A DNA stretch of 64,000 nucleotides, taken from assembly GCA_019057865.1 (NCBI GenBank), contig JAHLWP010000011.1, positions 32,674 through 96,673 of the forward strand, read 5' to 3'. How positions within the stretch are numbered: the first letter of the stretch is position 1; each line of letters opens with the position of its first letter. Under the pieces are notes generated by a model, which was not told the origin of the DNA, made no database searches, and worked only from the letters and a program-made list of their open reading frames with translations. The stretch is from Promethearchaeota archaeon. Its GTDB lineage: Archaea > Asgardarchaeota > Lokiarchaeia > Sigyniarchaeales > SOKP01. The position numbers and the translations under genes were made by a program. Shown here in pieces: positions 52,169 to 54,884 of the stretch.

Positions 52169-53908
52169 TTATTCTTTAACGGTTTCTAAAAGCTCCTCTA
52201 TTTCGGCTTGAATTACTTCGGGATTCTTTGCCTGTTCACCTTGAATCGCAAGTGCCTTCTCTATACGCTCTCGATGGATGGTGTTCATGGCACAAAATGG
52301 AATCTCTAAGACCTTGCTATTATCCGATGGATCTATCACGCCGTAATGGACTAAGCATCTTTTCATTCGCTCCAAATCGAAATTGTAAGCGTCTTGGAAG
52401 TGCATGGCTGAGATCATAAGATTACGGCTGTGCAAAAAGTTTGCCGCTGAATTGTAGTTAGGAGACGCAACTAGGCGGACGAATCCTTGAAGAGTTTTAC
52501 TTGTTAGAATTTTTTCAGGGTTTTTTATAAATTTTAATGCCCCACCAAAGTAATATGCTTTCATCATTTGCCTGTACCCTAGATTTGTTATTTCATCAAC
52601 GAATTTACCTATGGTACTTGCAATTGCTCCGAAATCCTCTAAGTTAATACCCTTCAAGAAACCTGTGGGTTTAGGAATTTCTTTACCTTGAACCATGTCA
52701 TAGACTTTATTAGACCATTTAATTAATCCTTCTGTATCGAAATATTTTTCGATTTGGTCCCATTCACCTTTCTCATTTACAATGCATATAGTACAAAAAC
52801 CACAATCATGATGGCTCGTCATACCAAAGTCAGGCTGGTTATCAAACCACGCTAATAGTCTCGTCATTTTAGCTGTGGTTGCGATTGGGTAGAATTTGCC
52901 TAATGCGTTATTTGTACATTCATTTATGGCATCTTTTAAATCAGAGGTAGTATATCGTATATCCATCAATTCTTCAAAACTAATACGACCACATAGAGCA
53001 ACTGGTTGAAATATTACTCCTGATATAACATCAGTATTGTCTTTAGCATAATTCATAATATTACCAATCTGGTGGTCGTTAACACCTTTGGCAATTACAG
53101 GAACTAGCATAACACCAAAAAATCCAATTTTTCGACAATTTTCAATAACTCTTTTCTTCAATGGCCATAAATTAACACCTCTGATTTTTATCCAAGCCTC
53201 TGGATCATCGGTTGCATCAAATTGGAGATAAATGGCATTCATTCCAGCATCCTTACATTTTTGAAGAAAATCAATAGATTTTGCGAATCTTATACCATTT
53301 GTAGTGACCATTATTTCAGTAAATCCTAATTCTTTCCCTTTACGAATGATGTCAGGTAGATCATCTCTTATTGTTGGTTCTCCACCAGATATTTGGAACA
53401 TGACAGGAGGGACAGGTTTCATGGATCTAAAGTGTTCCATGATCTGAACTACTTGATCATACGTAGGTTGCACTATATATCCTTTAGCACTTGCATTTGC
53501 GAAACAAATAGGGCAAGTTAAATTACAGCGATTAGTTATATCTATAAGACAGATATTTGGAGCACTTAGGTGATTATCACATAGTCCACAATCATAAGGG
53601 CAACCCTTTTTTATTTCTTTAATCCCTGAGGATATATATTCTGGCTTAGTAGAGTTATTTACAGTAGAACCAATATCATCTGTAAATGACATTTGCCATT
53701 TATAATCTTCTGGGTGAATTGAGAGCTTATCTTTGAAATCTCCATGATCTTCGCATGTTTTTCGCATCATCACCCAATTAGTTTCTGAATCAACATAAAT
53801 CTCGGCTGGAATTGGTTGTAAACATTCTGGACATAAGCTAGTAGTTGTTCGAATAATTTCTTCTTCTCTTTGAACTTCTTGAGTTAATCCTTCAGTCATA
53901 AGAATCAA
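52169..53908 (-). CDS. tes: Tetraether lipid synthase (GDGT-MAS), radical SAM
   Basis: TSLCPEC...KTCEDHG, CPYDCGLCDNH, CNLTCPICFA, MHFQDAYNFDLER..RC, IPFCAMN. Confidence 0.9.
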   Translation of the reverse strand: MILMTEGLTQEVQREEEIIRTTTSLCPECLQPIPAEIYVDSETNWVMMRKTCEDHGDFKDKLSIHPEDYKWQMSFTDDIGSTVNNSTKPEYISSGIKEIKKGCPYDCGLCDNHLSAPNICLIDITNRCNLTCPICFANASAKGYIVQPTYDQVVQIMEHFRSMKPVPPVMFQISGGEPTIRDDLPDIIRKGKELGFTEIMVTTNGIRFAKSIDFLQKCKDAGMNAIYLQFDATDDPEAWIKIRGVNLWPLKKRVIENCRKIGFFGVMLVPVIAKGVNDHQIGNIMNYAKDNTDVISGVIFQPVALCGRISFEELMDIRYTTSDLKDAINECTNNALGKFYPIATTAKMTRLLAWFDNQPDFGMTSHHDCGFCTICIVNEKGEWDQIEKYFDTEGLIKWSNKVYDMVQGKEIPKPTGFLKGINLEDFGAIASTIGKFVDEITNLGYRQMMKAYYFGGALKFIKNPEKILTSKTLQGFVRLVASPNYNSAANFLHSRNLMISAMHFQDAYNFDLERMKRCLVHYGVIDPSDNSKVLEIPFCAMNTIHRERIEKALAIQGEQAKNPEVIQAEIEELLETVKE

Positions 53909-54092
53909 AACACTTGATTTAATTTAGTTAAATGATTAATTGTTTTAATAAATAACCCTTCAAGCTATTTAAGTATTTTAATAATCTCGATATTATTATC
54001 AATATTATTAAAAAATAGCTGAAATTTTATTAAAATGTTATTTAGATGTTTTAATTTTCACCTTTTTTAAATATTATCCTTTAGATTTAAAA

Positions 54093-54216
54093 GGTGACTC
54101 CTGCCAACAAGACCTAATACAAGGTCGAAAATAAAATAGGGGGAGGAGGGCGAAATCAGAGTGTAAAGATTTACACTACCAAAAGACAAAAATCCAGGGT
54201 GTAGGCAGGAGTCATG
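54093..54216. ncRNA. Candidate structured non-coding RNA (~120 nt), family unknown
   Basis: Locally GC-rich island. Perfect 11-bp closing stem TGACTCCTGCC (54095-54105)/GGCAGGAGTCA (54204-54214). Internal hairpins GACCT/AGGTC (54111-54126) and AGTGTAAA/TTTACACT (54160-54177). Confidence 0.65.
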
Positions 54217-54485
54217 GATTTTTAATGAATTTTCTATCCTATTTTATTTTTAATATGATATTAGGAATTTAATTTTTATCTTATACTTACTATATGTTTT
54301 AGAGTTTATAAATTAAATCTATAGTCAATTAATAAGATCTACTTATTTAAATCATTAATTTTAAATTTTCTTAAAATTAAAAAGTAATAATAGATGTTTT
54401 AAATCAAGTAAAAAATTAGAGAAACTAAACTTTTGGAAGTTCTCGTTTTTATAGTAATTTCATTTTGAATTAGTGGAATAAAACT

Positions 54486-54884
54486 TTGTTGATTATTATG
54501 GAAAACATGAAAAAGAAGCAAAAAGTTGGAAGACCTGAGCCAGAGTTCAAATTTGATATAGGGACTGTAGTATGTATCATTATAGGATTTGTCATATCCT
54601 GGATAAATATGTTAGTTATTTATGATTCAATGGAAATCTGGTCATATTTATCAATAATATTCACATCAATAATACCGGGAGTATTAATTGCAATAAAGAA
54701 TAGATATTGGGGTTATGGATATATATTTGGGTTCTCAGCAGCAGGCATACCCTTTTTGATTTTAATTGATCCTTTTATTGGAGGTTATACTTTTGTAACA
54801 GCGCTATTAATTTTTATAATATTATGGCTAATTTTTTGGAAAGCATGGCGCTCACTTTCTTCAATTAAGAAGACAAATTTGTAA
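54486..54884 (+). CDS. Four-TM membrane protein
   Basis: Hydrophobic segments; the start is likely the ATG at 54498 or 54507. Confidence 0.75.
   Translation: MLIIMENMKKKQKVGRPEPEFKFDIGTVVCIIIGFVISWINMLVIYDSMEIWSYLSIIFTSIIPGVLIAIKNRYWGYGYIFGFSAAGIPFLILIDPFIGGYTFVTALLIFIILWLIFWKAWRSLSSIKKTNL

Follow-up and report, generated by a model that had tools for sequence, protein, structure and literature searches.

What is the GC-rich island that sits in the very AT-rich DNA next to a candidate tetraether synthase gene (tes) in an Asgard archaeon? We addressed this question with a stretch of 64,000 nucleotides from a Promethearchaeota archaeon (assembly GCA_019057865.1, contig JAHLWP010000011.1, positions 32,674 to 96,673 of the forward strand), which we call the window; its forward strand is referred to as plus and the complement as minus. 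Judged by sequence comparison, positions 54089–54223 of the window constitute one copy of a gene for a structured small RNA; the RNA family that it represents is uncatalogued and restricted to one lineage, a single GTDB family of the Lokiarchaeia (Promethearchaeota). The best explanation overall—one to which we give somewhat less than an even chance of being right in all its parts—is that the members of this RNA family are stand-alone genes read from the minus strand, whose product would be a trans-acting particle RNA with a U-rich box (U-box), a C/U tract, and a leader that may mask both.

The island is folded and occupies 54095–54214, between tes and the gene for a small membrane protein, and its GC content reaches 0.42 as against 0.13–0.21 in the flanks. 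The core gene (54089..54223, with minus as the favoured strand) comprises a closing stem (P1), two hairpins (H1 and H2), and a pair of invariant linkers, with short conserved tails at its ends, giving a predicted RNA of ~125–135 bases; it is supported by a covariance-model match of 148–164 bits and by covariation. P1 pairs TGACTCCTGCC (54095–54105) with its perfect complement GGCAGGAGTCA (54204–54214) over 11 bp and, past an A/A mismatch, gains an extension of 3 bp (ACA at 54107–54109 with TGT at 54200–54202). Enclosed by it are, in plus-strand order, hairpin H1 (GACCT/AGGTC, 54111–54126); linker A (54127–54159), which holds both the purine tract GGGGGAGGAGGG (54139–54150; CCCUCCUCCCCC in the minus sense) and a conserved GGCGAAAU; hairpin H2 (AGTGTAA/TTACACT, 54160–54177); and linker B, ACCAAAAGACAAAAATCCAGGG (54178–54199), which in the minus sense reads CCCUGGAUUUUUGUCUUUUGGU and forms the U-box with its Sm-site-like GAUUUUUGU. 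At one end, a conserved 7-nt flank AAARGGT (54089–54095; A at 0.75–0.79 and G at 0.73–0.75 in the positional profile) becomes the 3' tail ACCYUUU when read on minus. The predicted fold beats 200 of 200 shuffles on each strand (z −4.9 on plus and z −6.0 on minus).

Three further features adjoin this core. TTTAAATA (54066–54073) lies upstream of the element in the plus sense; a T5 run (54219–54223), 4 nt past P1, is terminator-like on plus and forms an A-run on the RNA's 5' side on minus; and a competing 9-bp hairpin (54058–54066/54089–54097) overlaps the stem end. The competing hairpin is kept in the nearest relative (L014) only, not in other genera, and is probably a local feature rather than one of the family. 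The GC-rich island, the 11-bp stem and its 3-bp extension, the two hairpins, the linkers, TTTAAATA, the T-run, and the competing hairpin had all been picked out in an earlier inspection of the letters of this DNA (the sequence-only reading), and all are present as it had described them.

Is the fold more than a chance structure? It is under selection. We scored covariation in 82 homologues, with partners slid by 1–3 columns and shuffles as controls. Standard pairs filled 90.8% of cells, compared with 32–42% when partners were slid, and compensatory cells numbered 339, compared with 75 ± 11 in shuffles—a positive outcome for the check on covariation among homologues that the sequence-only reading had put forward. 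Both sides had changed in 26 of 29 pairs, and the covarying pairs took in all 24 of the three helices (12/12 in P1, 5/5 in H1, and 7/7 in H2), with H1 paired in 96% of cells. Even among paralogues within one genome, the closing stems differ yet compensate. Linkers A and B, for their part, are nearly invariant across 12 genera: the exact 20-mer of linker B, which is essentially invariant, was found on >118 contigs from genomes and on >110 from metagenomes. The hairpins are more freely dispensed with. H2 is swapped for longer inserts in some genera, variants of 155–167 nt have enlarged hairpins, and both H1 and H2 are missing from the mini copies described below.

How far does the family extend? 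The host genome (4.26 Mb, 99.7% complete) carries four full copies of 86–91% identity, on contigs C9 (the window copy), C64, C36, and C43, as well as two mini copies (C27:10706–10807 and C54:~2060–2140), which retain only P1, GGCGAAAU, and linker B and define the minimal conserved core. Within the GTDB family of the host, BLASTN recovered homologues from 129 of 135 genomes, spanning 12 of 13 genera, and from every high-quality genome (36/36). A covariance model built from 43 diverse copies matched 119/126 genomes of the same family in a class-level sample, whereas the sister family yielded 1/13 and the remaining members of the class 0/11; in a phylum sample the corresponding numbers were 25/25 for the family and 0/126 for the other Asgard families sampled. 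Closed sister-family genomes of 4.3–4.4 Mb carry no copy, and the cultured Asgard strains seem not to belong to the family that has the RNA. Each genome with the element has 1–18 dispersed copies. A scan of metagenomes added many further homologues, with marine-sediment metagenomes rich in the element, and yielded no transcript boundaries; the loci gathered in total number about 300.

Most contigs with the linker B 20-mer carry the label Promethearchaeota. Five loci (L118, L099, L092, L076, and L150, the last with two copies) bear submitter labels of Odin-, Thor-, Hod-, or Hermodarchaeota or of Patescibacteria and score as close relatives; given the GTDB-based tallies, these odd labels are likely due to mislabelling or mis-binning. 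Copies at times stand in pairs 3–6 kb apart on one contig (L107, L077, L133, and L150; contig C76 of genome G035), and the interval in L107 encodes proteins of 335, 511 (radical-SAM-like, judged by eye only), and 393 aa, none of them an integrase. A segment of ~70 nt (TTTCATATTTTTCTTTTTCTATTCTATTGTAAGA...) recurs, following one paralogue and preceding another (L002:1760–1830 and L004:1420–1490; contigs C64 and C43). Two paralogues lie at most 260 nt from contig ends, and the assembly may under-represent the real number of copies or hide their arrangement, which could be tandem.

Catalogued RNA families do not include this one. Rfam 15 at gathering thresholds gave no match in the whole 64-kb window, and at E ≤ 10 the sole match in 53900–54500 was RsaOG (18.7 bits, E 2.5), a chance hit that lies beside the element. 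ARAGORN found neither a tRNA nor a tmRNA in the window, and the 5S rRNA model (RF00001) matched nothing on the element and nothing anywhere in the host genome. The sequence-only reading had taken the element for a novel, unannotated structured RNA of an Asgard archaeon, resembling neither tRNA nor 5S rRNA, and had named an Rfam scan as one way to check it; with no family matched, that view holds. In the literature searched, we found no published description of the RNA.

From which strand is the RNA read? The sequence-only reading had kept both options, and of these the minus reading, with its U-rich, Sm-like box and its CCCUCCUCCCCC tract, is the better supported—by a wobble asymmetry, by the flanks of paralogues, and by flank duplexes. 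We consider it likely that the RNA is read from minus, i.e., co-directionally with tes. When each helix haplotype was counted once and those with more than two non-Watson–Crick pairs were set aside, 73 pairs were G·U only on minus vs. 30 only on plus, alongside 80 other mismatches (binomial p 2.7e-5), and the asymmetry was replicated in haplotypes known only from metagenomes (23 for minus vs. 12 for plus). Comparison of paralogues in five genomes revealed extra flank homology in 13 pairs on the plus-downstream side vs. 1 on the other side, and on that other side homology between copies ends sharply 7 nt past P1, after ACCYUUU in the minus sense. Such one-sided homology with a sharp end is as expected for an upstream promoter and leader and for an RNA 3' end at ACCYUUU. 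The flank motifs described below pair with the linkers via G·U on minus only. Full minimum free energies favour minus in 99 of 109 sequences, a count that is biased by U-richness and was rejected as a strand call.

Several observations weigh against the minus reading. A T-run of at least five within 20 nt past P1 is present on plus at 55 of 109 loci, compared with 21 of 109 for the other flank read on minus, and the plus-strand run resembles the T-runs that follow host tRNA genes. Consensus-helix energies alone are nearly equal on both strands, and RNAalifold prefers minus in two datasets and plus in one (the metagenome set). TATA-like matches form no positioned peak on either side and are only ~2x denser on the side that lies upstream in the minus sense. 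Finally, transcription itself, together with the strand and the ends of the RNA, is something we infer from the DNA. As for promoters in general, a k-mer scan upstream of 2040 long open reading frames (ORFs) recovered the Shine–Dalgarno (SD) consensus and no promoter consensus; TTTTATCTT is no general promoter motif; and the 13 tRNAs found by ARAGORN in the host genome are too few for a promoter matrix.

A plus-strand RNA is the foremost alternative, unlikely in our judgment but by no means far-fetched. It would be a purine-rich RNA of ~130 nt running from AAARGGU to the oligo-T run that follows P1, and its exposed AAAGGUGA and GGGGGAGGAGGG would mimic SD sequences, either binding the 16S rRNA 3' end or sequestering another pyrimidine-binding factor. 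The T-runs suit such a transcript, as 77 of 109 loci have at least four T within 20 nt, the 55 with at least five among the same 109 having been mentioned above, and host tRNA genes end likewise. Its 5' flank would equal the SD consensus of the genome: AAARGGT plus the GA of P1 gives AAAGGTGA (AAAGGUGA/GGAGG) in the plus sense, while upstream of host genes the k-mer AAAGGT peaks at −16 and GTGAAA at −12, and GGAGG, GAGGT, and GGTGA are enriched 5–6-fold at −22 to −3. The loops would be A-rich, as is common in structured RNAs, and the RNAalifold preference in the metagenome set points the same way. However, the wobble asymmetry runs counter to this strand (30 vs. 73), nothing is conserved upstream of the 7-nt flank whereas at least 110 nt past the supposed terminator are conserved among paralogues, and the flank motifs meet the linkers through C·A mismatches.

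These flank motifs lend the minus-strand reading its leader. The first, CCTATTTTATTTT (54238–54250), is a perfect 13-nt complement of 54128–54140 in linker A. A complement of at least 10 nt is found in 20 of 86 unique loci; it covaries, with linker T>C matched by flank A>G in L095, L086, L105, and L264; and its mismatches in L014, L108, and L140 are wobble pairs only on minus. The second, ATTTTTATCTTA (54272–54283), complements AAAGACAAAAAT (54182–54193, linker B) save for one end position and one pair that is C·A on plus and G·U on minus. On the motif 2 flank, TTYATCYT occurs at 35 of 101 loci, whereas the opposite flank has it at 4 and the reverse orientation accounts for 3; non-syntenic paralogues carry it too, and it is no general promoter element. 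Energies of the flank–linker duplexes lie above controls on minus only. These patterns suggest that a longer transcript could cover both boxes, i.e., that the RNA may mask itself. Two points count against the masking: the leader motifs are recognisable in only about one-quarter to one-third of loci, and the two flank–linker pairings cross each other, which makes them invisible to nested folding.

Does the element instead regulate the genes beside it? The tes-like radical SAM gene, a tetraether synthase candidate, occupies 52169..53899 on minus (Pfam Radical_SAM and Zn_ribbon_HMPTM) and starts ~190 nt past the RNA end in the minus sense; it is syntenic at 15 of 43 loci. On the other side, 54498..54884 on plus encodes a single-copy, four-helix membrane protein of 128–132 aa with no Pfam family. 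A cis-regulatory leader (riboswitch, attenuator, or thermosensor) would act on the membrane-protein gene if read from plus and on tes if read from minus, and we regard it as improbable. Synteny speaks in its favour. The block tes(−)–RNA–128–150-aa membrane protein(+)–73-aa zinc-ribbon protein(−)–155-aa protein(−) is conserved at 20 of 43 loci from at least eight genera, and at 52 of 179 loci overall. The RNA copy retained there, with tes on one side and a membrane-protein gene specific to the archaeal family on the other, is a "master" copy; this membrane protein shares the phyletic range of the RNA (24/25 in the family vs. 0/126 outside). In addition, covarying stems with invariant junctions resemble an aptamer, and P1 followed by a T-run resembles an attenuator.

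However, the membrane-protein gene is missing downstream in 127 of the 179 loci, and all copies outside the tes block have unrelated neighbours. Non-syntenic copies have no orientation preference towards neighbouring genes, with which some of them converge. On plus, the downstream neighbour runs with the element in 71 cases and against it in 33, and on minus the numbers are 73 and 30, an excess due to the syntenic copy; read towards either side, the element differs in direction from about one-third of its neighbouring genes. A GC-rich P1 of 11–14 bp is too stable for a ligand-gated switch; spacing varies widely (90–390 nt to the membrane gene and 170–600 nt to tes); and tes is widespread in archaea, whereas the RNA is restricted to one family. 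Unrelated neighbours without an orientation preference argue for a stand-alone gene, with adjacency to tes reflecting synteny, not regulation, and we read the element as a stand-alone small-RNA gene rather than a tes riboswitch. The cis-regulator of tetraether synthesis that the sequence-only reading had offered thus gives way before 1–18 dispersed copies whose non-syntenic members lack a preferred neighbour orientation. In most genomes, the membrane-protein gene lies 90–390 nt from one RNA copy, and a functional link between the two is possible.

Nor does the element behave like a mobile repeat. That it is a non-autonomous, MITE-like element or another DNA-level repeat, with terminal inverted repeats that merely mimic an RNA stem, is very improbable and already largely refuted. 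Such a repeat would be multi-copy and dispersed, as the family is at 1–18 copies per genome, several of them at contig ends and some 3–6 kb apart. Multiple copies with target-site duplications had been named beforehand as the mark of a MITE; the copies are indeed multiple, but the MITE itself is not borne out, as stems are compensated, loops are invariant, and no target-site duplication is present at the element ends. Terminal stems vary among paralogues of one genome but stay complementary, which means that one transposase could not recognise such ends. Across 12 genera the loops stay the same and the internal hairpins covary, synteny of one copy holds throughout the archaeal family, and the ORFs between two clustered copies 4.7 kb apart encode no integrase and no transposase.

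Least probable of all is that the element is an already known RNA that goes unrecognised (a 5S rRNA that has diverged strongly, a Y RNA, or a vault RNA): a length of ~120 nt, a closing stem, a three-way layout, and a host genome without any Rfam 5S match would fit one, but no Rfam family is matched even at E ≤ 10, several divergent copies are present per genome, 5S-like loci exist elsewhere (in relatives and on contig C63 here), and there is no TROVE/Ro60 gene. The element does share with Y and vault RNAs a size of ~100–130 nt, a long stem that closes both ends, and a U-run at one end; no Rfam Y_RNA or vault match falls on it. The Y RNA-like architecture suggested by the sequence-only reading is contradicted by the lack of a Ro60/TROVE gene (PF05731 was not found in the 99.7%-complete host genome, while control genomes gave matches) and by a closing stem that covaries freely, with no conserved protein-binding sequence of the kind found in the Ro-binding stem of Y RNAs. 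The major vault protein repeat PF01505 had no match in the host genome, nor in any control genome. A 5S rRNA identity was likewise rejected, as the relatives have separate, weak 5S-like loci, with a homologous stretch on contig C63 here.

That stretch is of some interest in itself. In the relatives, the Rfam 5S model gives matches of only 25–29 bits, and in the host genome C63:32315–32434 (L332) contains 5S blocks that can still be recognised but whose order seems permuted: GGAAGTTAAAC...GGGAAA, then a hairpin and GGTCAT, then CCCGGTCCCATCCGAA. It is a candidate for a rearranged or circularly permuted 5S rRNA gene in the same archaeal family.

How, then, might a stand-alone RNA read from minus work? 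Outside its helices it would present the U-box CCCUGGAUUUUUGUCUUUUGGU and the C/U tract CGCCCUCCUCCCCCUAU, with ACCUUU as its 3' tail, and it would be a stable small RNA that forms a particle and acts in trans. The protein docked by the U-box would most plausibly be one of four Sm-like (LSM-domain) proteins, whose binding is predicted. A canonical Sm site is a single-stranded purine-A-U(4-6)-G-purine flanked by helices. On minus, the invariant GAUUUUUGU is placed between P1 and H2; its final position is U, not a purine, which makes the match to an Sm site an imperfect one. The U-box has no second near-complementary site in the host genome, and the lack of a long antisense target suggests that it serves to bind a protein and not as a seed for pairing. 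The host genome encodes four LSM-domain ORFs, which lie on contigs C31, C5, C69, and C75; all score above the Pfam cut-off, the weakest of them barely. Since such proteins are common in archaea, these genes are weak evidence for an Sm-class RNA.

The second active part would be the C/U tract together with the UCACCU-like 3' end. Resembling the anti-SD of 16S rRNA, they could pair with purine-rich, AGGAGGUGA-type ribosome-binding sites of target mRNAs. The RNA would end in GUCACCUUU in the minus sense, similar to the 3' end of 16S rRNA. The near-invariance of the linkers and the SD consensus of the host genome, AAAGGUGA/GGAGG, are leads for such a mechanism. A target scan with the purine tract returned 17 weak ribosome-binding-site candidates that form no pattern, which counts against this pairing. 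If the primary transcript is longer, its leader would include the reverse complements of 54272–54283 and 54238–54250 upstream of the core; the former could pair with the U-box and the latter with the C/U tract at its edge, and the RNA may stay self-masked until it is processed or remodelled. By analogy with small nuclear RNAs (snRNAs), one could go further and picture an Asgard particle bound by an Sm ring, with its two boxes masked by the leader, in which the unmasked RNA competes with ribosomes for mRNA binding sites and so acts as a global, switchable translational regulator; we think this quite unlikely.

Which known systems does the RNA resemble? On minus, it has an invariant AU5G-type box (GAUUUUUGU, then a U4 run) between helices, as do Sm-class snRNAs (U1, U2, U4, U5, and U7) and small RNAs (sRNAs) bound by Lsm, Hfq, or SmAP proteins. 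Binding is predicted in the present case; unlike those RNAs, the element lacks the final purine of the box, and there is no sequence or structure homology. Because the RNA is limited to one archaeal family, it is not ancestral to snRNAs. Bacterial C/U-rich sRNAs with C-rich motifs of the RsaE/RoxS type likewise expose a tract complementary to a GGAGG-type SD, here the invariant CCCUCCUCCCCC, but they come from unrelated organisms and have an unrelated fold, a convincing set of targets is not apparent for the element, and the element alone has a tail like the rRNA 3' end.

Two further parallels concern the gene rather than its motifs. GC-rich small RNAs of AT-rich archaea, the HgcC/E/F/G class, were reportedly described by Klein et al. 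in 2002. Like these, the element is a GC-rich structured island in very AT-rich archaeal intergenic DNA and a stand-alone gene; it differs in having no Rfam match to any of them and in being multi-copy and restricted to Lokiarchaeia. Sibling sRNAs (Qrr1–5) offer a model for diverged paralogues with identical unpaired boxes and with stems that drift and compensate, although the element varies from 1 to 18 copies and has no known shared regulator or target.

The RNA is neither a regulator specific to tetraether synthesis nor an ancestor of eukaryotic RNAs. It is a strongly constrained RNA, with invariant 20-nt boxes over 12 genera, and occurs in ~95% of genomes within a Lokiarchaeial family that is large and uncultured; a covariance model would clear a recurrent "unknown GC island" from the annotations of these genomes. 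Asgard archaea are the closest prokaryotic relatives of eukaryotes, and very little is known of their non-coding RNAs; the RNA described here provides a testable handle on RNA-based regulation, and possibly on the function of Sm proteins, in these archaea.

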